From NCBI GenBank assembly GCA_965246885.1, contig OZ251992.1, forward strand, positions 1,888,001 to 1,952,000: DNA of 64,000 nucleotides, given 5' to 3'. Below the pieces are notes generated by a model. The model had not been told where the DNA came from, did no database searches, and saw nothing but the letters and a program-made list of their open reading frames with translations. This document shows, one piece after another, positions 50,937 to 64,000 of the stretch. Both the position numbers and the translations under genes were made by a program. The stretch comes from Abditibacterium sp. (lineage in GTDB: Bacteria; Armatimonadota; Abditibacteriia; Abditibacteriales; Abditibacteriaceae). Each line of letters opens with the position of its first letter. Position 1 is the first letter of the stretch.

Positions 50937-51437
50937 ATGGCCGAATCAACCACTTCCCCCGCGAAGAAAAGCAGCGCCGCCCAAACGATGCGCCGCGTGC
51001 AGCAACTGCACCTGATATTGGGCACCCTCTTCGCGCCGCTCATTCTCTTCTTCTCGCTGTCGGGCGCGCTGCAAACGCTCGGCTTGCACGAGCAAGAGAA
51101 AGCGGGTGGACACACGCCCGCGTGGATGGCGCAACTGGCGTCTGTTCACAAAAATCAGCAGTTATCGCGCGGCGAGGGACGCCCGCCCAAATCCGAAGGC
51201 GCGAGCGATGCGGCACCGAAGAAGAGTCCGTCCGCCGCCCTCAAGGATGAGGGGAATGGAGCGCGCGGCCCGTCGCCTTGGCCGCTCAAGTGGTTCGTGG
51301 TGCTGATGTCGATGGGCCTTGCCTTCACGACCGAATTGGGCGTATGGATGGCGTTCAAATACTCGAAGAACAAAGCGATGGTGTGGGCACTGTTGGCAGT
51401 CGGAACGCTATTGCCCCTCGTGCTCTTGTGGTTGTAG
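50937..51437 (+). CDS. PepSY-associated TM-like membrane protein
   Basis: LHLILGTLFAPLILFFSLSG, LASVHK, three TM segments. Confidence 0.6.
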   Translation: MAESTTSPAKKSSAAQTMRRVQQLHLILGTLFAPLILFFSLSGALQTLGLHEQEKAGGHTPAWMAQLASVHKNQQLSRGEGRPPKSEGASDAAPKKSPSAALKDEGNGARGPSPWPLKWFVVLMSMGLAFTTELGVWMAFKYSKNKAMVWALLAVGTLLPLVLLWL

Positions 51438-52751
51438 CGGGAAGGTGACCATCGCGCGCACGCTGTTCTCTATGGGAGTAAGCGCGACCGTCCACCCGTT
51501 CGTCGCGCAAATGGAGCGGCAGATCGCCAAGCCCAAGCCGTTGCCGCCAGTCGAGGAAACGCGCGCGAAGTCGGGTCGAAAGAATGGCTCGAACCACTCG
51601 TGCGGCACGGCGCCCTCTGGCAAATCGCAGTCGTTGTCTATCTGTAAAAGGGCTTCGGTGCGCGTCGAACCCAGTTCGACGCGCACGAGGGTGCCGGGTG
51701 TCGCGTATTTAGCGGCGTTCTCGATGAGGTTGCGCAGTAGCATTTCCACGTGCGCAGGCGGCGCATCGAGAGGGGTGTCGGACAGGGAACATTGAAGCGC
51801 AAGGCCCCGCGCCACAAAGGTGCCGCGCGCCCCATCGAGGGCGCGCTCGACCCAATGGGCAAGGTCGAGCGATTCATTGAGGGGCCGACTTTGGCGCATT
51901 TCCAAGGCGTTGAGTTGCAAGAGGTCGCGCACCAGCCCCGCGAGCCGCTCCGTTCCGACTTGGATGTGGGCGAGGGCTTGCTCGTGCTCCGCGATGGTTC
52001 GGGCGCGCGAGCGCGCCACGTCTATTTCGCCGAGCAGTATCTGAATGGGCGTGCGCAGTTCGTGCGAAGCCGCCGCATAAAAGCGCCCGCGCGCCGCCGC
52101 TTCGCGCTCCAAGCGGCCCAACAGGTCGTTGAGCGTGCCGGTCAAATGGCACATTTCGGCATCGCTCGAAGGCGATTGTAAACGCACTGGCGCGGTGTCG
52201 GTCGAGGCGTTCTGCGCTTGGGCTTGCGCCGCCAGTTTGTGAAGCGGGGAGAGCGTTTGGCCGACGACGAACCACGCGAGGAGCGCCGTCGCACCCACCA
52301 CGAGCGCGCCCAATTCCCACAACGCCCGCGCCCGCTCCCGCAGTTCGGCTTCAATGGGCGCCCATTCTCGCGCCACTACGAGCGTTTGCCTTCCGCTGGA
52401 AAGCGTGGCGGTGCTCCATTCGTCATCGCGGTCGGGCCAATCGGGAGCGTCGCGGCTCGATTGCCACAAGACACGGTTCTTCGCGTCCACGACCAACAGC
52501 GCTACACCCCCAACGGCCAGTTCCCCTTGGACAGCGCGGATGACGGCAACGAGCGGGCGGTGGAAGTGCGCTTCTTCGGCCACCTCGTCACGGGCGCGAC
52601 CGAGGGAGGTTTGCAGCGACTCCGCTACCCGCGCGAGGGCGCGTTGTCGCTCCTTTTGTTGAATGGCGCCTTCGCCCACGAGCAGGAGGAGCGCCACCAA
52701 CCCCGCGAAGAGAAGAGTCATGCGCGCGCGCATCGAGCGAAGGCCAGTCAC
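51408..52751 (-). CDS. Sensor histidine kinase (HAMP-HisKA-HATPase)
   Basis: ASHELRTP, NLIENAAKY, GNGLGLAI; start is 52751 or 52733. Confidence 0.9.
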   Translation of the reverse strand: MTGLRSMRARMTLLFAGLVALLLLVGEGAIQQKERQRALARVAESLQTSLGRARDEVAEEAHFHRPLVAVIRAVQGELAVGGVALLVVDAKNRVLWQSSRDAPDWPDRDDEWSTATLSSGRQTLVVAREWAPIEAELRERARALWELGALVVGATALLAWFVVGQTLSPLHKLAAQAQAQNASTDTAPVRLQSPSSDAEMCHLTGTLNDLLGRLEREAAARGRFYAAASHELRTPIQILLGEIDVARSRARTIAEHEQALAHIQVGTERLAGLVRDLLQLNALEMRQSRPLNESLDLAHWVERALDGARGTFVARGLALQCSLSDTPLDAPPAHVEMLLRNLIENAAKYATPGTLVRVELGSTRTEALLQIDNDCDLPEGAVPHEWFEPFFRPDFARVSSTGGNGLGLAICRSICATNGWTVALTPIENSVRAMVTFPLQPQEHEGQ

Positions 52752-53416
52752 TAATCCAGCCCCAAACGGTAGCCGACGCCGCGCGCGGTGTGAATAAGCG
52801 GCGAACGGCCCCGGTCTATTTTGGCGCGCAGATAGCCGATGTAGCAGTCGAGGACGTTGTCGTGCCCCGCGAAGTCGTACTGCCACACATGGTCTAAAAT
52901 GACGGCGCGCGCCATCGTTTGCCCCGCGTGCCGCATCAGATATTCGAGCAAGGAGTATTCTGTCGCCGACAGTTCGATGTTCTTCTCGCCGCGCCGCGCG
53001 CGCCGCGTGCCGGGATCGAGCGTGAGGTCGCCGACGGACAAGCACGTCGAGCCGGAGTGCCCGCGCCGCAGGAGCGCCCGCATCCGCGCCAGAATTTCGG
53101 CGACGCGAAATGGCTTGCACACGAAATCATCGGCGCCCGCGTCCAGCCCCTCGATCTTATCTTCAAGGGTGTCGCGCGCCGTGATAAGCAGAACGAGCGA
53201 GCGCACGCTCGCTTCGCGCAAGCGGCGGCAGACCTCGAAGCCGTTCATGCCGGGGAGCATCACGTCGAGCAGAATAAGGTCGAAGGGAGTTGCGCGCGCC
53301 AAGTGCAACGCGCGCAAGCCATCCGCCTCGACGCGCGGCGCATAGCCCGCCTCGCGGCATGCTTGTTCCAGAAAGCGCGACACGCCCGCTTCGTCTTCGA
53401 CGATCAAAACATTCAT
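52751..53416 (-). CDS. OmpR-family response regulator
   Basis: LIVEDE, LLDVMLP, GADDF, KPF, HTARGVGY. Confidence 0.93.
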   Translation of the reverse strand: MNVLIVEDEAGVSRFLEQACREAGYAPRVEADGLRALHLARATPFDLILLDVMLPGMNGFEVCRRLREASVRSLVLLITARDTLEDKIEGLDAGADDFVCKPFRVAEILARMRALLRRGHSGSTCLSVGDLTLDPGTRRARRGEKNIELSATEYSLLEYLMRHAGQTMARAVILDHVWQYDFAGHDNVLDCYIGYLRAKIDRGRSPLIHTARGVGYRLGLD

Positions 53417-53447
53417 GCCCAAAGTTTCCCCTCTTGCGCGCGGCGGG

Positions 53448-53810
53448 TCAGTTCTTTTTAGTGGTTGCGCGGTGGGTGTTCTTGGCACCAGCGGCGGCTT
53501 CCTGCTTTTTCTCGATGCCCTCTTTGGCAGCGCTGGTAGCTTCGATGTCCGCGATTTTGCCGGTGTAAGCGTCCACCATGACTTCGCGTAGCGTGCGGCC
53601 CGAACGCACCATCACGCCGTATTGCCATTTGCCTTCCTCGTTTTCCAAGGTAGTGCGGGCGACGAGTTTGCCGGGAAAGCGCTGAAGAACGACCGCGTTG
53701 GCGCGGGCAACGCCCACTTTAGCATGCGGCGCGGCGTGCGCGGCGGACAAAGCGACTCCTGCAACAGTTATAGCCGCCAATAGGCGGGCGAGTGTGGTTG
53801 ATGTTTTCAT
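53448..53810 (-). CDS. Secreted PepSY-domain protein
   Basis: Signal peptide; LENEEG.W.Y, EVMVDAYTGKI. Confidence 0.85.
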   Translation of the reverse strand: MKTSTTLARLLAAITVAGVALSAAHAAPHAKVGVARANAVVLQRFPGKLVARTTLENEEGKWQYGVMVRSGRTLREVMVDAYTGKIADIEATSAAKEGIEKKQEAAAGAKNTHRATTKKN

Positions 53811-53921
53811 GGTTATGTCGGTAAGGGCAAGTGTGCCCTTTCCCGCACCCCAGTTAACGCCGCGCCCTTGTGAGTACCCTGAGAGTCGTGATAGAAGTTT
53901 CTCAGAGAGATTGTTGCCCAC

Positions 53922-54881
53922 TCAATGTCCATGCCCGCAATTGTTCCCAGCGTGCGAGTGGGTGGTGAGGGCGCAAAAGAGGGCGACTTCTTCTCCCGAT
54001 GGGCACAAACCCTCGACGTCGGTTTGGATGGTGGCGTGGCCGATGCCGTGCTCGTTGTGGAGCAGGGTGGCAAGGGCGCTCACGATGGCGGCGCACTGTT
54101 CGAGCGTGAAGTCGGGGGGCAAGGCGACGTGGCACGACAGGAAGTTGAGGCCATCGCCTACCGTCCAGATATGCAGGTCGTGGACGCCGCGCACGCAGGG
54201 AATAGCTTGCATCGCGGCGACGAGGACGGGCACGTCCACGTTCTTGGGCGTGCTTTCCATGAGGATGTCCGTCGCGTCGCAGACAATTCCCCACGCCGTG
54301 TAGAGGATGAACGCTGCTATAAGCAGCGACACGAGCGGGTCGGCATACACCCAGCCGGTGAAATGCACGACGAGGCCCGCGACGACGACGGCAGCACTGG
54401 AAAGGGCGTCGCCCAGCATATGCACGAACGCCGCGCGCGAGTTGAGACTGTTTTTGGCGTCGCCGGACAGAGCGGCGGCAATGACGGTGTTCATCACGAC
54501 GGCAACGAGCGCTACCCCAATCATCAGGCTTCCGCTTACCGCTTCGGGATGAAGCCAGTGGGCGATGGCTTCGATGCCAATCCACGCGGACAGCGCAACT
54601 AAAGAGACTGCGTTAAACAGCGCCGTCAAGATGGCGACGCGGTGATAGCCGAAGGTGCGCGACCCCGTCGCCGGGCGCGCCGCGACCCCAATGGCGTAGG
54701 CCGCCAAGCCGAGCGCAAGGGCATCGGAGAGATTGTGTCCGGCGTCCGACAAGAGGGCGAGGGAGTGGGACACAACACCTGCAACCGCTTCGACGACGAC
54801 AAAAGCGAGGGTGACGCCGAGCGAAACCCACATCTTGCGCCCGCTCGTCGGGCCGTGAACGTGTCCTGCGTGACTTGACAT
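53922..54881 (-). CDS. czcD: Cation diffusion facilitator (CzcD-like)
   Basis: SLALLSDAGHNLSD, TFGYHR, HMLGD, HDLHIW, HATIQ. Confidence 0.9.
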   Translation of the reverse strand: MSSHAGHVHGPTSGRKMWVSLGVTLAFVVVEAVAGVVSHSLALLSDAGHNLSDALALGLAAYAIGVAARPATGSRTFGYHRVAILTALFNAVSLVALSAWIGIEAIAHWLHPEAVSGSLMIGVALVAVVMNTVIAAALSGDAKNSLNSRAAFVHMLGDALSSAAVVVAGLVVHFTGWVYADPLVSLLIAAFILYTAWGIVCDATDILMESTPKNVDVPVLVAAMQAIPCVRGVHDLHIWTVGDGLNFLSCHVALPPDFTLEQCAAIVSALATLLHNEHGIGHATIQTDVEGLCPSGEEVALFCALTTHSHAGNNCGHGH

Positions 54882-55169: not shown

Positions 55170-55928
55170 ATGTCTTTCTTCAACAAGCGCAGCAAAACGC
55201 TGCTCGGTGCCGGAGCGCTCGCTGTACTCGCGCTTTCCGTGGGCACCGCGCGCTACGCCAAAGGCTCCGACCATGCCGGAACCGTCGTCACCGCGCAAAC
55301 CCGCCCCGGAACGGACTTGTCCGATCTCCACATCTTCCCCAGCCCCACCAATCCCAACAACGTCGTTTTGGCGATGAGCGTCCACCCGCTCATTCCCGCC
55401 GGAACCGCTTCGGGCGCCGTGAGCTTCGACCCCGGCGTTTTGTATCAATTTAAGATAGACAACACCGGTGACAACATCGAAGACCTCGTCATCCAAGCGC
55501 GCTTCACGGGTTCGGGTGCGAGCCAACGGGTCTACATCGCTGGGCCAGTCAAGCCAACACGCACAGGAGTTATTACCCAAGCCGAGACGCCTTACGGGAC
55601 GACTGGCACCTTCGGCCAAGTGTTCTCACCAACCGCGAACGTTAAAGTTTTCGCCGGTATGCGCTCCGACCCGTTCTTCATTGACCTGTCGCAACTCTTC
55701 GCCATCTTGCCCGACCGCGCCGACCCGCTCAACGCGACTCCCAAGACCGACCCGGCCAAAGCGAATACCCCCCAAGTTCTGTCCTTTCGCCCACCGGGTC
55801 AAGCGCAGGACTTCCTCGCCAACTATAACGTCCTCGCAATCGTCGTCGAACTGCCCAAGTCGCAGCTAATCAGCGCTGGCACCGGCAAAATTCGCGTTTG
55901 GGAGACGACCAGCATCGCCAACAGCTAA
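55170..55928 (+). CDS. Secreted DUF4331-family protein (N-terminal half)
   Basis: Signal ending AKG then SDH; DLSDLHIF, YQFKIDNTGD, FAGMRSDPFFIDL, NVLAIVVELP. Confidence 0.8.
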   Translation: MSFFNKRSKTLLGAGALAVLALSVGTARYAKGSDHAGTVVTAQTRPGTDLSDLHIFPSPTNPNNVVLAMSVHPLIPAGTASGAVSFDPGVLYQFKIDNTGDNIEDLVIQARFTGSGASQRVYIAGPVKPTRTGVITQAETPYGTTGTFGQVFSPTANVKVFAGMRSDPFFIDLSQLFAILPDRADPLNATPKTDPAKANTPQVLSFRPPGQAQDFLANYNVLAIVVELPKSQLISAGTGKIRVWETTSIANS

Positions 55929-55948
55929 AAGCGACGCCAACACACATT

Positions 55949-56524
55949 ATGAAAAACCTTCTTGTTTTAAGCGCCGCTTGCGGAGCCTTGGCCGTTGCCC
56001 TCGCTGGTTGCGGTGGAGGTGGCAACAGCCCGATCATCAGTAGCCAAACATTTACCCAAACCGACCGCTTGGCGCGGCCCGTCGTCAACGAGGTCTTCGC
56101 CACGTTTGCTAATGGGCGTCATGACGTCAACGACAAAGACAACCCCACCGACGACTCTGGGCAACTCGCCAACGACATTCAAGGCTTCATGACCAGTCCG
56201 GCGGGCCGCTCGCCAGAAACGACCGCTGCGGTTAAATCTGTCCTTGTCCCCGACGTGATGATCGCCGATCTGTCGGTCAATAGTACCACTGCGGCTTATC
56301 TTGGCTCGGAGACTGGTGGTGTGACGGGTAGCAAATTTGGGGGCCGCGCGCTCACCGATGACGTGGTGGACACCTCTCTCGGCGTCATCTTCGGCCCGAC
56401 TATTTCCAAGTTGGGCTTGGCTCCCGACGACAAAAAAGAAATTCCCAACCTCACCACCGACAACGTCGGCCCCGGCGCCAAGAACTTCCAAACCAGCTTC
56501 CCCTACTTGGGCACGCCCAAATAA
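55949..56524 (+). CDS. DUF4331-family lipoprotein (C-terminal half)
   Basis: Lipobox LAGC; QTDRLARPVVNE, GGRALTDDVVD, FPYLGTP. Confidence 0.8.
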   Translation: MKNLLVLSAACGALAVALAGCGGGGNSPIISSQTFTQTDRLARPVVNEVFATFANGRHDVNDKDNPTDDSGQLANDIQGFMTSPAGRSPETTAAVKSVLVPDVMIADLSVNSTTAAYLGSETGGVTGSKFGGRALTDDVVDTSLGVIFGPTISKLGLAPDDKKEIPNLTTDNVGPGAKNFQTSFPYLGTPK

Positions 56525-56608
56525 ACTCCTGCGACTTGAGGTCAAGTCGCAGGAGTACAACGGGCGCGGGTGGAGTTTTTCCACCACCCGCGCCCGTTTT
56601 TCGTTGTC

Positions 56609-57997
56609 ATGAACTCGCGCCGTTTCTTTCCCATTCTCGCCGCCGCCTGCACCCTTGGGGGCGCGCTTGTGTGGGCCAAAGTTTCCGGTTCGTCGCTTCT
56701 GCTTCCGCCGCCACCCGCGCTCTCGACGGCCCGCGTCCGCGCCCCTTATGACCCCAGCGCCGTTCACAAGCTCCTCGAATTCGACGCGAAACAAGCCCGC
56801 TCCGACCCCGGCAACGCCATCTTTGGGGCGAATCTGGCCGCCCAATACCTCGAAAGCTACCGCGAAACGGGCGATGCCGCCGACGCTACTCGCGCCGAAG
56901 CCGCCGCGCGCGCCTCGCTCAAAATCCGCACGCACGGCAACAGCGCCGCCTTCTTCGTGCTCGCCCGCGCCCTCTTGACGCAGCACCGCTTCGCCGAAGC
57001 CCTCGTTGCCGCGCGCCGCGCGTCGTTGGGCGATCCGGTTGGACTGCGCCAGTGCGCCGACATCGAAATCGAACTGGGCGACTACGCCGCCGCCGCGCGC
57101 GACATCAACGCCTCGCAAAAGCTGGTCGAAGCCAGCGCGCACGAAGTCGCCCTCGCGCGTGGCGACGCGCGCTCCGCCAAGCCCGACGAAGACCCCGCCG
57201 TTCTGACGCTCGTCGCGCGACTCCGGGAGTTGCACGGCGACACTAAGGGGCAACTTACGCTTCTAACCCGCGCCGCCCAACTCGCGGACGCCGATGCCGA
57301 CTTGCCCGCCGCGACCGTCGCGTGGTTTCATGAGCGATTGGGGCGTTGCCTGTTCATGACGGGCCGCTTGGACGAAGCCCGCGTCCAGTATCGCGCCGGT
57401 CTCTCCGTCTTCCCGCGCGACTACCGCACGCTCGCCGCCCTCGCCCATCTTTGCGCCGCGCGCGGCGATTGGAAGGGCGCGCTCGATTGGGGACAAAAAG
57501 CCGCCAACATCGTGCCCGCTCCCGAAACCCTCGCCCTACTTGGCGATGCTCATGCCGCGCTTGGCCAAAGCGCGCAAGCGGCGGCGCAGTACAAACTCGT
57601 TGAGCAAATCGGTGCCCTCGGCCAAGCGCAGGGCATTCTCTACGACCGCCAGCGCGCGCTCTACTACGCCGATCACGACCGCAACCCCGCTCAGGCCGTC
57701 GCCTTGGCACGCGGCGAGTTGCGAGTGCGGCACGATATCTATGCCGATGACGCGCTCGCGTGGACGCTTTGCAAAGCCGGGCGCGCTGGGGAAGCCGCAC
57801 CTTTCGCTGCACGCGCCTTGAGGTTTGGAACGCGCGATGCTTCCCTGTTCTTCCACGCCGGAATGATTGCCGCCGCTCTGGGCGACAAGGCGCACGCCCG
57901 TCTAAACTTGACCTGCGCCCTCCAAGTCAACCCCTTTTTCCACCCGACGCAACCCGCGACGGCGCGCGCCGCGTTAGCGCATTTGGCGGCGTCTTGA
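56609..57997 (+). CDS. Exported tetratricopeptide-repeat protein
   Basis: N-terminal hydrophobic segment; helical repeats; HRFAEA, DIYADDALAW, FHAGMI, NPFF. Confidence 0.85.
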   Translation: MNSRRFFPILAAACTLGGALVWAKVSGSSLLLPPPPALSTARVRAPYDPSAVHKLLEFDAKQARSDPGNAIFGANLAAQYLESYRETGDAADATRAEAAARASLKIRTHGNSAAFFVLARALLTQHRFAEALVAARRASLGDPVGLRQCADIEIELGDYAAAARDINASQKLVEASAHEVALARGDARSAKPDEDPAVLTLVARLRELHGDTKGQLTLLTRAAQLADADADLPAATVAWFHERLGRCLFMTGRLDEARVQYRAGLSVFPRDYRTLAALAHLCAARGDWKGALDWGQKAANIVPAPETLALLGDAHAALGQSAQAAAQYKLVEQIGALGQAQGILYDRQRALYYADHDRNPAQAVALARGELRVRHDIYADDALAWTLCKAGRAGEAAPFAARALRFGTRDASLFFHAGMIAAALGDKAHARLNLTCALQVNPFFHPTQPATARAALAHLAAS

Positions 57998-58000
57998 CCC

Positions 58001-59470
58001 ATGAATTCGCTTCGCTTCTGGTGCTTTGTTTGGTTCGCAGGGGTGTGGGGAACGCTTGCCCGACCTGCGAGCGCGCACCCGATGGGCAACTTTTCCATCA
58101 ACCACTACGCGCGCTTTGGCGTCGGCGTCAGGGAAATCAAGCTCCGCTATATCCTCGATTTCGCCGAAATTCCCGCCGCCGAGCGCATGACCCGCCTCGA
58201 TGCCAACGGCGATGGGCGGGCGAGCGACGCGGAAAAAGCGGCGTTTTTAAAAACCGAAGCGCCCACCTTCTTGGGTGGGCTGAGCCTAAAAGTAAACGGG
58301 CAGGCCCTCGCCCTCGCGCTGCTCTCGTCCGATCTCGAAGTGCGTCCGGGCGCCGGTGGTTTGCCGACGTTGCGGGTTTGGATGGATGCGCGGGCGCCGC
58401 TTCCCTCTGCCTCAACGCTTCGCGTTGAGTATAATGACGCCAATTTCGAGGGGCGCACTGGCTGGATGGAGATTCTCGCCCTGCCCGAAAAGGGTTGTGC
58501 CGTGCGCGACTCGGACGCCGGCAGCGTTGACCGCAGTCGCGGCCTGACTGTCTTCCCGCTCGATGCGGGAACTGTTGCGCCCCGCCAAAGCAGTGCAGCT
58601 TTCACCGTTGTTCCTTCGGACGCGGCATCCGCTTCGGCGAGCGCCGCTCCTCCGCCGAGCGCCCCCACGAGCAACGATAACACCCCGCAAAACCGCTTCA
58701 CGCAAAGCATCGCTGAAGGTGAACTCACCCCGGCTTTGGTGGCGTGGGGCGTTCTGTTTGCGCTTGGGTTCGGCGCTGTCCATGCTCTCTCGCCGGGACA
58801 CGGCAAAACGATGGTTGCGGCGTATCTTGTCGGCACGCGCGGCACGCCGCGCCATGCGGTTTTGCTCGGTTTGGTCGTAACCATCACCCATACCCTCGGC
58901 GTCTTCGCGCTTGGGTTCGCGCTGTTGTTCGCGTCGCGCTCCATTCTGCCCGAAAAGCTCTTCCCCGCCTTGAGCGCCCTCAGTGGCATGCTGATTTTCG
59001 GCGTCGGTCTGTGGCTGTTCCTGTCGCGCTGGCAAGCGCTCACCGCGCCGGGGCACACCCACTCCCACGACGATCATACCCACGAAAATGGCGGACATAC
59101 CCACTCGCACGGCGGGCACATCCACTCCCACGCTGTCCCCGAAGGGCCACTGACGATGCGCAGCCTCGTGGCGTTGGGGATTTCAGGCGGCATCGTGCCG
59201 TGCCCCGAAGCCTTGGTCGTCCTGCTGGCCGCCGTGAAGCTGCACCGCATCGGCTATGGCATGGTGCTTATCTCCGCTTTTAGTTTGGGACTCGCGGCGG
59301 CGCTGGTGGCCATTGGACTACTTGTGGTGTCAGCGCGCGGGCGGTTGAGTCGCGTACGCGGCTTGGACGAGAACTCCGCCCTCGTGCGCTGGTTGCCCGT
59401 TGGGAGCGCCGCCATCATCACCCTCATTGGCGCCATCCTCACTCTCCGCGCTTCGATGGGCGCCTTTTAG
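58001..59470 (+). CDS. RcnA/NicO-type Ni/Co transporter with periplasmic N-terminal domain
   Basis: ASA|HPMGNFSINHY; HALSPGHGK, HTLGV, His-rich loop, GGIVPCPEAL. Confidence 0.85.
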   Translation: MNSLRFWCFVWFAGVWGTLARPASAHPMGNFSINHYARFGVGVREIKLRYILDFAEIPAAERMTRLDANGDGRASDAEKAAFLKTEAPTFLGGLSLKVNGQALALALLSSDLEVRPGAGGLPTLRVWMDARAPLPSASTLRVEYNDANFEGRTGWMEILALPEKGCAVRDSDAGSVDRSRGLTVFPLDAGTVAPRQSSAAFTVVPSDAASASASAAPPPSAPTSNDNTPQNRFTQSIAEGELTPALVAWGVLFALGFGAVHALSPGHGKTMVAAYLVGTRGTPRHAVLLGLVVTITHTLGVFALGFALLFASRSILPEKLFPALSALSGMLIFGVGLWLFLSRWQALTAPGHTHSHDDHTHENGGHTHSHGGHIHSHAVPEGPLTMRSLVALGISGGIVPCPEALVVLLAAVKLHRIGYGMVLISAFSLGLAAALVAIGLLVVSARGRLSRVRGLDENSALVRWLPVGSAAIITLIGAILTLRASMGAF

Positions 59471-59533
59471 AACAACAGCGTTGAGAAGAGGCTTAGTGGC
59501 CTCTCCCTTTCTCGCGCGTCCTTGGAGTCGCTC

Positions 59534-60274
59534 ATGAACCCCACCTTTCTCCTGCTGCTGCTCGGCGCGCTTGGTTTCGGCGTTGCCCACGCTTTTGAAC
59601 CCGACCATATGGCGGCGGTTTCCACCTTTGTCGCGGGGCGTCCCAAGCCGCGCGAAGCCGCGCTGTTTGGCGTGCGCTGGGCAATTGGACACGGGTTTTC
59701 GTTGTTCCTTATCGGATCACTCCTCTTTTTGTTCCGGCGCGCGGCGGAAAAAGCGCAACCCGCGCTGTTCGCGTCGGGCGTCTTAGACCGCTTCGTCGGA
59801 TTGGTGTTGGTGGGGTTGGGAGTGTGGACGCTGTGGCAAGTCGCTTCGAGCCGCGCCACTAAAGCGCACGCACACGGCCACTTTCATGATGGGCGCTTGC
59901 ACGCGCACGGCGACCACTCGCACGGCCCTGATGGGCACACCCACTCGCATCAGGGCGGCTTGGCTTCGCTGGGCATGGGCATCTTGCACGGCGCGGCAGG
60001 AACGGGCGCTTTCGTGGGTCAGTCCGTTGTTTCCCTATCGAGTTCTTACGCTTTCGTGTTCTTCTACACGCTGCTGTTTTCGGTCGGTGTGCTCTTGTCT
60101 ATGGCGGTGTATGCGGGCGCGCTCGGCGGCCTCATCACGACGTTTGAAAAGCGCGGTCAGCAGGCGCTCACCGCCGCGCGTGTGGTAACGGCGGTGCTGA
60201 CCTGCGCCATCGGCGCGTGCCTTGTGTCGGGCGTCGAACTTCCCGGCTTGCTCGATCACTTCGTTCATCAGTAA
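59534..60274 (+). CDS. UreH/HoxN-like nickel permease
   Basis: HAFEPDH, WAIGH, His-rich loop, GILHGAAG. Confidence 0.82.
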   Translation: MNPTFLLLLLGALGFGVAHAFEPDHMAAVSTFVAGRPKPREAALFGVRWAIGHGFSLFLIGSLLFLFRRAAEKAQPALFASGVLDRFVGLVLVGLGVWTLWQVASSRATKAHAHGHFHDGRLHAHGDHSHGPDGHTHSHQGGLASLGMGILHGAAGTGAFVGQSVVSLSSSYAFVFFYTLLFSVGVLLSMAVYAGALGGLITTFEKRGQQALTAARVVTAVLTCAIGACLVSGVELPGLLDHFVHQ

Positions 60275-60291
60275 ACTATGCCCATACCGAA

Positions 60292-60322
60292 CAACAGCCC
60301 CCTACTTCGTAGGGGGCTGTTG
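60292..60322. terminator. Hairpin between convergent genes
   Basis: CAACAGCCCCCTAC-TTC-GTAGGGGGCTGTTG. Confidence 0.75.
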
Positions 60323-60325
60323 GTG

Positions 60326-61240
60326 TTACTGCGGCGAATCGGGCAGTGGGCCGCGCACAACGTGGTCGGGGTATTGGTCGGCGCGTGCCGCGCTCCACCG
60401 AAGCCACTTGACGTGTCCGTCGAAATACAGGTAGTTCGAGCCGCCCATGTGCCTATCCCACTTAATCCAGCCCGTTTGGTGCGCCGCGTCGGTTCCCACA
60501 AGCGAGCCTTCACCCGGCCATGTGTCGTAGTCATCTTGAGCGACGGAGTCATTGGGCGGTGCATTGAAGGGCGTGGCCGGGTTGCTGAATGCTTCCGAGT
60601 TGCGTTCGGAGAACATAATGATGCGCGCGTCGGGGAAGCCCGCGACGGCAGCATCGGTGGCGAAGCCATGCAAAGGCGTGTTCTCCATCGCGTAGCGGCA
60701 TGACTTGTGGGTGAAAATCGAGTTCAGCAGGTAAGATTCGATGGTCAGCCTGTTGGTTTTTGCGAGCGCCTGTTCGCTGTTGGGCGGCAACGTGTCTGTT
60801 GTGGATTGAATGGCGCCGTTGTAGTCGAGGATATTGGTCGCCGCGTTTGCCGAACGCGGTGTTGGATCGGACGGACAGTACCCGATTTGGCGGCTTTTGA
60901 GATACGGCTGGAAAAAGATAATCCAAGGCTTCTCGGCCTGACTATTTCCCGCGCCCCCCCCCGTGCACGTATCATCGGCAGTGGCGGGCGGAGGAGGCAA
61001 AGTGGGAATTTGGGTGCCATCGTCGAGAACCCAGCCCTCGTGGTGGTGGAACAGTTGGCCATCGTTGTCTTGCAAATACTGGGCGGCGGCCAAGCCCAGT
61101 TGTTTCATGTTGCTCATGCAGGAAGCTTTGCGCGCATTTTCGCGCGCGCGGGCAAAAGCGGGGAACAAAATCGCGGCAAGAATGGCGATGATGGCGATAA
61201 CTACCAATAATTCCAGCAAAGTGAAAGCGTGTTTGCGCAT
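60326..61240 (-). CDS. Prepilin-type N-methylation / DUF1559 / H-X9-DG protein
   Basis: [59 protein letters not shown]. Confidence 0.92.
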
Positions 61241-61246
61241 GGTGTC

Positions 61247-61274
61247 GGATTACGAACCAAAGTAATCGTAACAC
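61247..61274 (-). promoter_or_regulatory. Putative NikR operator
   Basis: GTGTTA-N16-TAATCC imperfect 28-bp dyad, 6 nt before the prepilin ATG and just downstream of nikR. Confidence 0.55.
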
Positions 61275-61303
61275 ATCTCATGCCATGCGGGGGCGAACGT
61301 TTC

Positions 61304-61768
61304 TTATTCCTGAGCGGAGTTTGCATCGCTCTCTCCAATGACGGTAACTGTTAATCGCCCATGCTCTACACCCTTGGTTCCAATCAGCGCGTCGGACAGA
61401 AAGCGGATGCGGTGGGCGTCGCCGCGCACCACCAAGACTTCGAGGCAGTTGCCGCCGTCCAAGTGAACGTGCAATGTGGACACGATAAGGTCGGCGCAGT
61501 CGTGCTGCACGTCGGTAAGGGTGCGCTGTAGCTGCGGCTTGTGGTGGTCAAAGAGGAGGGTGATGGTTCCGGCGATGACCCCGCCGCTTTCCTTGTGATG
61601 CTCGACCAAGTGCGCGCGGATCATGTCCGCCAAGGCGAGCGAGCGGTTCGAGTAGCCCTTTTGCAGCACCATCGTATCGAGTTCGCGGGCCAAGGCCGCC
61701 GGAAGCGACACACTAAAACGCACTGCGCCTTCGTTGGGGATGCGGGAGTTGTGGTGGTGAGAAGCCAT
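61304..61768 (-). CDS. nikR: Nickel-responsive regulator NikR
   Basis: RFSVSL, GYSNRS, FDHH, LHVHLD..NCLEV, KGVEHGRL. Confidence 0.93.
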   Translation of the reverse strand: MASHHHNSRIPNEGAVRFSVSLPAALARELDTMVLQKGYSNRSLALADMIRAHLVEHHKESGGVIAGTITLLFDHHKPQLQRTLTDVQHDCADLIVSTLHVHLDGGNCLEVLVVRGDAHRIRFLSDALIGTKGVEHGRLTVTVIGESDANSAQE

Positions 61769-61817
61769 ATTGCTCCAAGTAAAGCGTTCCCGGCCCCGGC
61801 GGACGAAAAAATAACCT

Positions 61818-61990
61818 GCGCCATTCATCGGCGCGGCCCGGTGAACGGTTGGCGCGACCGCGCCATTCGTTGGCGTGACCGCGCCATTCGTTGGCGCGGC
61901 CCGGTAAACGGTTGGCGTGACCGCGCCATTCGTTGGCGCGGCCCGGTAAACGGTTGGCGTGACCGCGCCATTGACTGGCGCGGCCCGGTG
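61818..61990. repeat. 21-bp-period tandem array of two unit types
   Basis: GCGCCATTCGTTGGCGCGGCC and CGGTAAACGGTTGGCGTGACC, 8 units in total. Confidence 0.9.
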
Positions 61991-62038
61991 AGTGAGTCGC
62001 CGACGCCTCTCGGCGTGTGCGCGGCCAAACTGAAAGGC

Positions 62039-63862
62039 GTGCCGCCTTCCCAACTTCCGCCCGCGAAGAAACCGCCCTCACCCGCGACACTGCGCCGCGT
62101 CGTCGCGCTGTTTGGCGCTTACAAACCGTATCTCGTCGGAATTTGCCTGCTTGTGCTCAGTTCAGCGTTAGTGGGGCTACTCGCGCCGTTTTATCTGCGC
62201 TCGCTCATCAACGACGGGTTGCAACAGAAGAACTTGGCGGTCGTGTCGCACTACACGCTGCTGACGCTCGTCGTGACCATCGGCTCGACCGGATTGGCAT
62301 TGGGCTACGGCTACTTGTCGTTGCTTGTCGGGCAACAGCTAATGCGCGACCTACGCAATCAATTGAACAGCCACTTGCAGGGGATGTCGCTCCGTTTCTG
62401 GACGGGAACGCGCACGGGCGAGGTGCAATCGCGCCTGGTATCGGACGTCGGCGGCGTGCAAAACGTGCTGTCCGACACCGCCGCGAGCGTGCTTTCCAAC
62501 GTTGCGACGGTGCTCTCGACGCTTGTAGCGATGATCTACATGGACTGGCGGCTCACCCTCCTGTCCGTTGGCATCCTGCCGTTCTTCGCGTTTGTGGCGT
62601 TCAAGGTCGGGGACATGTCGCGCGGCTTACGCACGCAAAACCAGAAGCTACTGGCTGATTTGAACTCGACGATGAGCGAAACCCTCTCGGTATCGGGGGT
62701 GCTCTTGTCGAAAACGAATGGGCGCCGCGCGCTGACGGCACAAAAGTTCGCGCGCGAGAACGAGGCGCTTACGCAAGTCGGGCTAAAGTTGGCGATGCTG
62801 ATGCGCGTCTTCTTCAACCTGATAGGACTGAGTTTCTCCCTCACCCCGGCCCTTGTGTATTGGCTGGCGGGCTGGTTGTCCACGCAAGGAAGCGCTGCTC
62901 TTTCTATTGGCACCATCGTCGCGTTTTCGTCGCTGCAAGCGCGGCTCTTTTTCCCGCTCACCTCGCTCTTGAACGTGCAAGTCGAAGTGAACTCGGCGCT
63001 CGCGCTGTTTGACCGTATCTTCGAGTACCTCGATTTGCCCCAAGAAATCACCGACGCGCCCGACGCGGTCGAGCTTTTCCCGGAGCAAGTGCGCGGGCAG
63101 GTCGAGTTCCGCGACGTGTCGTTCTCCTACGATGCAGGGCAGGAGCGCCCGACGCTGCATGAAGTCAGCTTAGTCGCGCGACCGGGCGAACAGATAGCGC
63201 TGGTCGGCCCGTCGGGTTCGGGGAAAACGACGATGACGTATCTGCTGTCGCGCTTATACGATGTGACGGGCGGCGCCATTGAGATAGATGGGCGCGACCT
63301 GCGGCACATAAAACTCGACTCGCTCGGTCAAATCATCGGGGTCGTGACGCAGGAGAGCTTTCTTCTGCACGACACCATCCGGGAGAATCTGCGCTACGCC
63401 CGCCCCGATGCGACGGACGCGCAGTTAGAAGAGGCAGCCCGCGCCGCCGCGATTCACGACTTCATCGCCGCTTTGCCGGACGGCTATGACACGGTGGTGG
63501 GCGAGCGGGGCACGAAGCTGTCCGGCGGCCAAAAGCAGCGCGTCGCCATCGCCCGCGCCATCCTGAAGAACCCGCCGATTTTGGTGTTGGACGAAGCGAC
63601 GTCGGCGCTCGACACCCAAAGTGAGCGCCTGATTCAAGAGGCTCTGGCGCGGCTGTCCAGTGGGCGAACGACCTTTGCCATCGCGCACCGCTTGTCAACG
63701 GTGCTGAACGCCGATCAGATTTTAGTGTTGGAAGCCGGGGAAGTGGTGGAGCGCGGCACGCACGCGGAGCTATTGGCGCTGGGCGGGGCCTATGCGCGCT
63801 TGTACGCGGCGCAATTTGAGGGTGAAGCCGAGGAAGTCGAGGTCTCGACTTCCTCGACGTAG
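62039..63862 (+). CDS. ABC exporter (TM + ATPase fusion)
   Basis: RTGEVQSRL, GPSGSGKT, LSGGQKQR, LDEATSALD; start uncertain (GTG 61988 or 62039). Confidence 0.9.
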   Translation: MPPSQLPPAKKPPSPATLRRVVALFGAYKPYLVGICLLVLSSALVGLLAPFYLRSLINDGLQQKNLAVVSHYTLLTLVVTIGSTGLALGYGYLSLLVGQQLMRDLRNQLNSHLQGMSLRFWTGTRTGEVQSRLVSDVGGVQNVLSDTAASVLSNVATVLSTLVAMIYMDWRLTLLSVGILPFFAFVAFKVGDMSRGLRTQNQKLLADLNSTMSETLSVSGVLLSKTNGRRALTAQKFARENEALTQVGLKLAMLMRVFFNLIGLSFSLTPALVYWLAGWLSTQGSAALSIGTIVAFSSLQARLFFPLTSLLNVQVEVNSALALFDRIFEYLDLPQEITDAPDAVELFPEQVRGQVEFRDVSFSYDAGQERPTLHEVSLVARPGEQIALVGPSGSGKTTMTYLLSRLYDVTGGAIEIDGRDLRHIKLDSLGQIIGVVTQESFLLHDTIRENLRYARPDATDAQLEEAARAAAIHDFIAALPDGYDTVVGERGTKLSGGQKQRVAIARAILKNPPILVLDEATSALDTQSERLIQEALARLSSGRTTFAIAHRLSTVLNADQILVLEAGEVVERGTHAELLALGGAYARLYAAQFEGEAEEVEVSTSST

Positions 63863-64000
63863 GGGAGGGGTGGAAGGTTGCCTCATGTTGCTGGCGCCGG
63901 GGCACCTGCCGTTGCGTCGGTGCGGCGCAGCATTTGGCGCAATTCCGAGCGGTTTCCAGCGTATTCGAGGGCTTTTTCCTCGCTGATTTTGCCCGCCGCG

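Follow-up and report, generated by a model that had tools for sequence, protein, structure and literature searches.

A DUF1559 prepilin gene behind a predicted NikR operator in Abditibacterium: a candidate nickel-capturing pilus subunit

In the archaeal bindosome, Sulfolobus sugar-binding proteins carry prepilin-type leaders and are handled by the Bas assembly system, and minor pilins for DNA uptake, ComP among them, equip a retractile pilus with ligand specificity. For nickel, the known outer-membrane step is that of TonB-dependent receptors, as described in the accessible part of PMC11247825. Few families have expanded as much in Planctomycetota, Verrucomicrobiota and Armatimonadota as the DUF1559/H-X9-DG prepilins, to which the literature we searched assigns no ligand. 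Tuwongella has 91 DUF1559-type proteins, which occur in membrane fractions and are given no assigned function in the accessible part of PMC8567305, and enzyme export has been suggested for one DUF1559-type pseudopilin encoded in an alginate-induced cluster (accessible part of PMC13274419). Our full-text literature searches, with subscription journals largely outside their scope, returned nothing joining DUF1559 with nickel, nothing on DUF4331 and nothing on prepilin-mediated uptake in an Armatimonad; the combination of NikR, TonB, nickel and pilin gave unrelated work only, and a search for a prepilin as a NikR target found none. Here we describe a DUF1559 prepilin encoded beside nikR in Abditibacterium sp., within a window of 64,000 nucleotides (assembly GCA_965246885.1, contig OZ251992.1, positions 1,888,001 to 1,952,000).

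The prepilin gene runs from 61240 to 60326 on the minus strand and encodes 304 residues. As a first-pass annotation of this DNA had stated, it lies downstream of nikR on the same strand with a gap of 63 nt (61241-61303); the span of 60326-61303 given there holds for the gene as far as 61240, and the stretch up to 61303 is intergenic. On its other side a 14-bp hairpin between convergent genes (60292-60322; z -5.3, 0 of 200 shuffles equally stable) is a likely bidirectional terminator, indicating that the pilin is the last gene of its unit. The protein starts with a short leader, MRKHA, followed by F-T-L-L-E. The N-terminal cleavage/methylation motif has its F at +1 and E at +5, with Ala rather than Gly at -1, and scores 29.8 bits with TIGR02532 (N-methyl prepilin leader, cut-off 16.3); PF07963 is also above its cut-off. 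TIGR04294 (H-X9-DG) is matched with 26.8 bits against a cut-off of 19, and PF07596 with 31.6 against 23.3, yet the latter match covers residues 31-55 only (model positions 2-26 of 268). Both sequence motifs named in the first pass are present: FHHHEGW at residues 64-70 (61031-61051, minus strand), a candidate metal site, by its conservation, right behind the pilin helix, and H-X9-DG at H264-G275, within an H-X9-DG(H) motif (H264-H276; 60413-60451, minus strand) that is generic to the family. A cluster search (Atlas) returned only unnamed DUF1559-like clusters, with the automatic name 'DUF1559 family PulG-like putative transporter'.

The neighbouring nikR (61304-61768, minus strand, 154 aa) is the single copy in the genome. 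Its product scores 151.7 with NF003381 (cut-off 105) and 107.9 with the C-terminal nickel-binding domain model PF08753 (cut-off 22). Alignment to 2bj1 and 2ca9 indicates that QH, HxH, the Cys of NCLE and the RFSxS strand are kept; we take the QH, HxH and NCLE residues to be the high-affinity nickel ligands. A predicted 28-bp NikR operator, GTGTTAC-N14-GTAATCC, occupies 61247-61274 (minus strand), 6 nt before the pilin ATG. A dyad had been proposed at this very place in the form GTGTTA-N16-TAATCC; the place stands, but those hexamers are complementary at only four of six positions; it is the inner TTACGA-N10-TCGTAA that pairs perfectly. Compared with the delta-proteobacterial NikR box, GTGTTAC-N13/14-GTAACAC in the accessible part of PMC545781, the site agrees at 12 of 14 positions. 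No other N14 site in the 3.56-Mb genome comes within two mismatches of that box; spacings N13 and N15 give two other sites each. It is also identical to the E. coli nikA operator (NC_000913.3) at 19 of 28 positions. The E. coli hexamer pattern GTATGA-N16-TCATAC misses the pilin site at two mismatches and has 25 other matches, and was set aside for the better-fitting delta-type box. An Rfam scan found no riboswitch within the window. Tandem repeats of 21/42/63 nt lie at 61818-61990, between nikR and a divergent ABC exporter and partly within the 5' end of the exporter gene.

To score the operator in other genomes we trained a matrix on eight loci picked solely for the presence of nikR within the locus. 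With this matrix the pilin operator, itself part of the training set, reaches 23.8, the maximum of its genome, where the next score is 17.1. Other NikR targets in the same genome were considered and rejected, the next scores (17.1 and 16.7) falling in an rRNA-like stretch or inside reading frames, and no site scoring above 12 was found ahead of the nearby DUF4331 operon. The matrix was then applied to 300 nt upstream of 83 other homologue loci, leaving aside duplicates, loci lacking an N-terminus and those with less than 100 nt upstream, with the threshold set at the 99th percentile of 515 background windows and the nikR status of each genome taken from whole-genome searches; the genomes were mostly assembled from metagenomes. 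The first-pass annotation had called for a motif search upstream of orthologs, and this one found the operator conserved and tracking nikR: it was above threshold at 9 of 10 loci from nikR-bearing genomes, in which nikR is not adjacent, and at 2 of 73 where nikR was not found, related genomes in these counts not being independent. The nikR-bearing locus that misses the operator is L109; the exception in the other direction is a strong operator at L036, from a genome without a nikR match. A matrix built from the published half-sites alone (accessible part of PMC545781) gave the same ordering for most loci and missed the GTAGCAC-type sites. In a quick tree the operator-bearing loci belong to several clades across two phyla. 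The linkage of nikR to the pilin also recurs, in 8 of 99 independent loci.

These comparisons bear on an alternative, that the site is a mere conserved -10 promoter element or a chance match and the pilin a bystander beside nikR. By eye, the left operator half contains an extended -10-like element, TG-n-TACGAT, and the sites of homologues likewise overlap -10-like hexamers (TACGAT/TACTAT), with TTGACG 16 nt upstream in L045, L085 and L108; this speaks for the alternative, as does the strong site at L036, in whose genome nikR was not found. A sigma-70 scan of 60200-62100 returned 0 promoters. The right half-site is conserved too, however, the site follows nikR even where nikR lies far away, and the same site heads cbiM/Q-type and TonB-dependent receptor genes in sister genomes, all of which makes the bystander explanation very improbable. 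Sites that overlie -10-like hexamers also fit repression. We therefore regard the pilin as very probably under NikR control through the predicted operator.

Nickel is thus well supported, by these sequence comparisons, for the regulation of this copy of the pilin. As the ligand of the whole group of orthologues, which we call subfamily A, nickel is something that we infer, because most homologues occur in genomes in which nikR was not found, many of them without a known nickel enzyme. In two search sets nikR was found in 5 of 38 and 4 of 29 homologue genomes. Riboswitch control of subfamily A was considered for genomes without nikR and rejected, 10 such loci containing no riboswitch, cobalamin included. 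In five loci whose genomes lack nikR (L126:9062-9418, L122, L123, L119 and L049) a conserved His-containing protein of about 110 aa is encoded divergently from the pilin. It appears by eye to be a ribbon-helix-helix protein, ATTACA-like repeats occur in the shared intergenic DNA, and it is a candidate replacement regulator; it has no detectable relation to NikR and no Pfam or PDB match. At L031:9076-9103 (G161) a second operator-like site (score 18.5) lies downstream of the pilin, ahead of an unrelated small gene.

Conservation within subfamily A points to the motif behind the helix. Of 1469 candidates, 1102 proteins matched pilin residues 55-304 at E 1e-10, and the top 120 are 55-71% identical to the pilin. 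In an alignment of 112 of these 120, H66, H67 and E68 are invariant (112/112) and H65 is kept in 110, so that the conservation of the HHHE motif, on which the first-pass proposal hung, is borne out. Invariant acidic residues occur as well (E103, E156, D237, D239 and E244), and D73, D74, D236 and H178 are found in 111 of 112. Over 99 independent loci, defined as less than 95% identical to each other, the triad reads HHH in 80, RHH in 10, QHH in 1 and LHH in 2, and is unreadable in 6. A pattern search of the own genome found 54 H-X9-DG paralogues, and HHH follows the helix only in the NikR-linked pilin. Subfamily A ranges over Abditibacteriaceae, other Armatimonadota, Phycisphaerae and Verrucomicrobiota, and its tree (a quick tree of 91 rows, 8 being left out for length) broadly follows taxonomy. 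Judged from this conservation, nickel binding by the pilin is likely. The paralogue closest to the pilin in its own genome (E 1e-9; L174:1429-2187, G000:C1 2847.0-2847.8 kb, minus strand) has QQHE after the helix and 9 His, and a long leader with a hairpin-like repeat and no Rfam match; it is possibly another metal subunit.

Convergent to the pilin, on the plus strand, an apparent operon at 55176-60274 encodes a DUF4331 protein split into two genes, an N-terminal half with the predicted mature N-terminus S-D-H (55176-55928) and a C-terminal half with a lipoprotein-like leader (55949-56524), both assigned by profile match; a TPR protein (56570-57997); an RcnA-like NicO protein, again a profile match, with a periplasmic N-terminal domain and a His-rich loop (58001-59470); and a His-rich NicO-like membrane protein (59534-60274; a weak match, below cut-off). 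A membrane protein, a two-component pair, a PepSY protein and a CDF metal exporter adjoin this operon (50937-54881), forming a wider metal-handling island. In a genome of the same genus (G084) the order is DUF4331-N, DUF4331-C, TPR, RcnA-like, NicO-like, a convergent TonB gene, a TonB-dependent receptor, the operator and nikR. This is the gene order of the window, with the receptor and TonB where the window has the pilin. Each of the 8 receptor loci of full length has the operator, placed ahead of the receptor gene or ahead of a nikR-receptor pair. Among 27 Abditibacteriaceae genomes, 11 have the receptor (3 partial), 3 the pilin orthologue, 13 neither and none both; this count leaves out as a generic paralogue a hit in G267 (E 9e-9, 32%), set aside because it scores like the second-best hit in the own genome, and if it were counted one genome would hold pilin and receptor. 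In a quick tree the three Abditibacterium genomes with the pilin group together as a single clade, so the exclusion may reflect one event. PF00593 (TonB receptor) has 0 matches in the own genome and is present in 23 of the 27, which means that the two other pilin genomes retain other TonB receptors. The pilin itself has no Pfam match to a plug or beta-barrel domain; by its domains it is not a TonB-dependent receptor, and it could work like one for nickel only in function. The operator-headed receptor family of Abditibacteriaceae (L210:9913-15633 in G084; L162-L169) is in its own right a candidate new nickel receptor.

The swap also bears on where the pilin would act. It could bind nickel under NikR repression and yet stay anchored in the inner membrane, or in a short pseudopilus, and act there as a periplasmic binding protein or chaperone that passes nickel on to NicO/HupE/NikMNQO carriers or the DUF4331 protein and leaves the outer-membrane step unreplaced. 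We consider this unlikely. In its favour, linkage in the 99 loci is often operon-like, DUF4331 being a neighbour in 27, TPR (as in the window) in 21 and HupE_UreJ_2 in 16; the other neighbours counted are nikR in 8, NiCoT, CbiM/Q and DUF4198 in 4 each and RcnA-like in 3. The predicted mature start of DUF4331 proteins is a conserved S-[SD]-H and that of HupE_UreJ_2 proteins is His; N-termini of the X-X-His type or with His bind Ni or Cu. The Tuwongella DUF1559-type proteins, moreover, were mostly in the detergent-soluble fractions S2 and S3 (accessible part of PMC8567305). Against a purely periplasmic role, the gene displaced in the swap is an outer-membrane receptor and not a periplasmic binding protein, and B12 and TPP riboswitches head paralogues of the pilin in a genome without a TonB receptor match.

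How far nickel can be extended to subfamily A as a whole depends on carriers and on demand. A nickel/cobalt carrier or nikR lies nearby in 33 of 99 loci, and in 26 of the 63 with 5 kb on both sides; carrier, nikR or operator are found in 43 of 99, and adding DUF4331 raises this to 48. The remaining 51 loci have none of these, and they count against the reading of the pilin as a nickel receptor, as do the 13 loci in which the first His is replaced. The own genome has LarC and two LarA-family genes as nickel clients; urease, NiFe hydrogenase and CbiM gave no match there, and a NiSOD search was blank, as was its control. Of 91 candidate pilin-bearing genomes 80 were searched for LarC, and 34 of them lack it. 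Two of these 34 have a full urease match, none of five tested has a NiFe hydrogenase, and no NiSOD was found in 59 genomes, the control search again being blank. In LarC-lacking genomes DUF4331 adjoins the pilin in 18 of 34 and occurs elsewhere in 9 of 10 others tested, a frequency that has no phylum baseline and that also suits the periplasmic role. Either DUF4331 is an unrecognised exported nickel protein in the LarC-lacking genomes without a known nickel enzyme, or the ancestral cargo was another metal.

The second of these options would make the ancestral ligand Co, Cu, Zn or a metal-bearing small molecule, with NikR control added in some lineages only. The scarcity of nikR and of known nickel enzymes in homologue genomes agrees with it, and His-rich and X-X-His sites bind Cu as well. 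ECF sigma and cupin genes recur near Verrucomicrobiota loci: in L087 (6253-7644) and five others a conserved 460-aa protein without a Pfam match stands beside the DUF4331-pilin cluster, and an ECF sigma and ChrR-cupin pair accompanies it. The HupE/UreJ, NiCoT and Cbi/NikMNQO carrier families, too, contain nickel and cobalt members alike (accessible part of PMC2667541). One pilin-adjacent CbiM is nearer to PDB 4m58 (E 6e-31), which we take to be the nickel-type NikM, than to 5x3x (E 6e-12). Cobalt demand was rejected as an explanation, CbiC being absent from 52 of 52 pilin-bearing genomes searched. Together with that absence and the lack of a cobalamin riboswitch in the 10 loci from genomes without nikR, the occurrence of NikR sites in several separate clades of two phyla and the displacement of a receptor under the same operator render another ancestral ligand quite unlikely. 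One of the two LarA-family genes of the own genome has an H-X9-DG prepilin gene some 1 kb away (G000:C1 1189776-1192346; L158, L250).

Inspection of nikR surroundings in 20 other genomes brought out a second NikR-linked group of DUF1559 prepilins, subfamily B (motifs EWDRCNAG and GGATC; loci L157:6810-10077 in G041, L175-L199). Its prepilin genes head runs of nikR, pilin, membrane protein, CbiQ-like protein and ABC ATPase. It shares only generic family motifs with subfamily A, having two conserved Cys and no His triad. Subfamily B is found in 38 of 201 genomes of the phylum, 36 of which have nikR, within about 1 kb in 10, and the operator is present at 15 of 24 readable loci (25 of 38 were fetched). 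No genome holds both subfamilies, A being present in 30, against 5.7 expected to share, related genomes again not being independent; in genus g53, five genomes have A, seven have B and none has both. By these sequence counts subfamily B is likewise tied to NikR and excludes A. That a subfamily without any His triad is linked to NikR also counts against the receptor reading of the pilin.

The own genome has matches for pilus assembly and retraction machinery. It contains a pilB-pilT-pilC run, in which the PilB and PilC matches are below their own equivalog cut-offs, three PilT/PilU over cut-off, and 8 ATPase and 6 secretin matches. About 2 kb upstream of nikR lies the end of a gene for a PilT/PilU-family ATPase (63886-64000 of the window, continuing past it; L257:387-1484, minus strand), a linkage not seen in the loci of relatives. 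The predicted pilin model (pLDDT 91.4, pTM 0.88) has a helix at 8-58 and strands at 170-173, 208-213, 267-272 and 277-280. With VIA-align, type IV pilins or pseudopilins fill the first 21 rows, in alignments that reach the C-terminal strands, at weak Z of 4.3 or less and an rmsd of 3.8 over 121 residues; Foldseek against PDB matched the helix alone, with nothing at E 0.001. Rfam scans, which covered the stretches upstream of most H-X9-DG paralogues, placed one cobalamin riboswitch directly ahead of an H-X9-DG prepilin gene (L233:309-418; G000:C1 ~3011030-3011140) and one TPP riboswitch directly ahead of another (L240:122-239; G000:C1 ~852280-852400).

Taken as a whole, we lean towards a low-nickel-induced, nickel-capturing pilus subunit that stands in for an outer-membrane nickel receptor. 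Nickel-loaded NikR would, very probably, shut the gene by occupying the 28-bp site, which overlies the -10-like element, so that expression occurs only under nickel scarcity. The leader would then be cut before F6 and the pilin built by the PilB/PilC machinery into a type IV pilus or pseudopilus, a step we think probable. The head is likely to hold Ni(II) or a Ni chelate through H65-H66-H67-E68 and some of the invariant acidic residues. In the last and most speculative step, PilT-driven retraction through a secretin might deliver nickel into the periplasm, where an inner-membrane carrier would take it over (of the NicO type here, NikMNQO, NiCoT or HupE/UreJ in relatives), with LarC/LarA and possibly the DUF4331 protein as clients; our support for import by retraction is tentative, falling somewhat short of even. 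The first-pass proposal of a Ni-repressed substrate-binding pilin is thereby upheld for nickel-linked regulation, where the operator tracks nikR and the pilin trades places with a NikR-controlled receptor, and extends less surely to nickel as the ligand of the whole subfamily. A wider reading, which we offer with less confidence still, is that Armatimonadota/Abditibacteriota and PVC bacteria import without TonB by a retractile type IV pilus with interchangeable DUF1559 receptors: subfamily A for nickel, a second, unrelated nickel subfamily that excludes A, paralogues for B12 and thiamine, and DUF4331 as an unrecognised exported nickel protein that would explain demand in genomes without known nickel enzymes.

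If the pilus model is true, it would provide a route across the outer membrane without a TonB receptor, and nickel would be the first named metal cargo for the DUF1559 family. This member makes the function of the family testable with a cheap ligand, since its regulator is known, its operator is precise, its candidate site is invariant and a TonB receptor naturally takes its place in a relative. Compared with the NikR regulons described for delta-proteobacteria and E. coli (nikMNQO and nikABCDE; accessible parts of PMC545781 and PMC2667541), the locus shares the regulator family, the 27-28-bp dyad and its place over the promoter by nikR; the targets given there are ABC, ECF or NiCoT transporters, and the target here is a prepilin. 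From sequence alone we make the smaller claim, that of a new kind of NikR regulon member, and the novelty of kind would lie in the proposed mechanism. With the nickel TonB-dependent receptors (FecA3, FrpB4, CntO, NikH and others; accessible part of PMC11247825) the pilin shares the genomic slot and the operator in a sister genome and, putatively, the outer-membrane nickel step. It differs in having no beta-barrel or plug but a putative pilin fold with a large insertion, and its energy would come from pilus ATPases rather than from TonB. By motif models it is a member of DUF1559/SBP_bac_10 (PF07596) with N_methyl and H-X9-DG (TIGR04294); unlike DUF1559 at large, subfamily A is a conserved orthologous group with FHHHE and acidic motifs of its own and a named regulator. 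ComP (5hz7, 2nba) resembles it as a minor pilin that would lend ligand specificity to a retractile pilus, although the cargo of ComP is DNA and the two are alike in structure only weakly (Z 4.0 and 3.1) and only in the pilin core. With the archaeal bindosome it would share substrate capture by way of a type IV prepilin leader and a pilus-type assembly machine; there the captors are ABC-type binding proteins in a one-membrane cell, whereas here a pilin-fold head, an outer membrane and a metal cargo are proposed.
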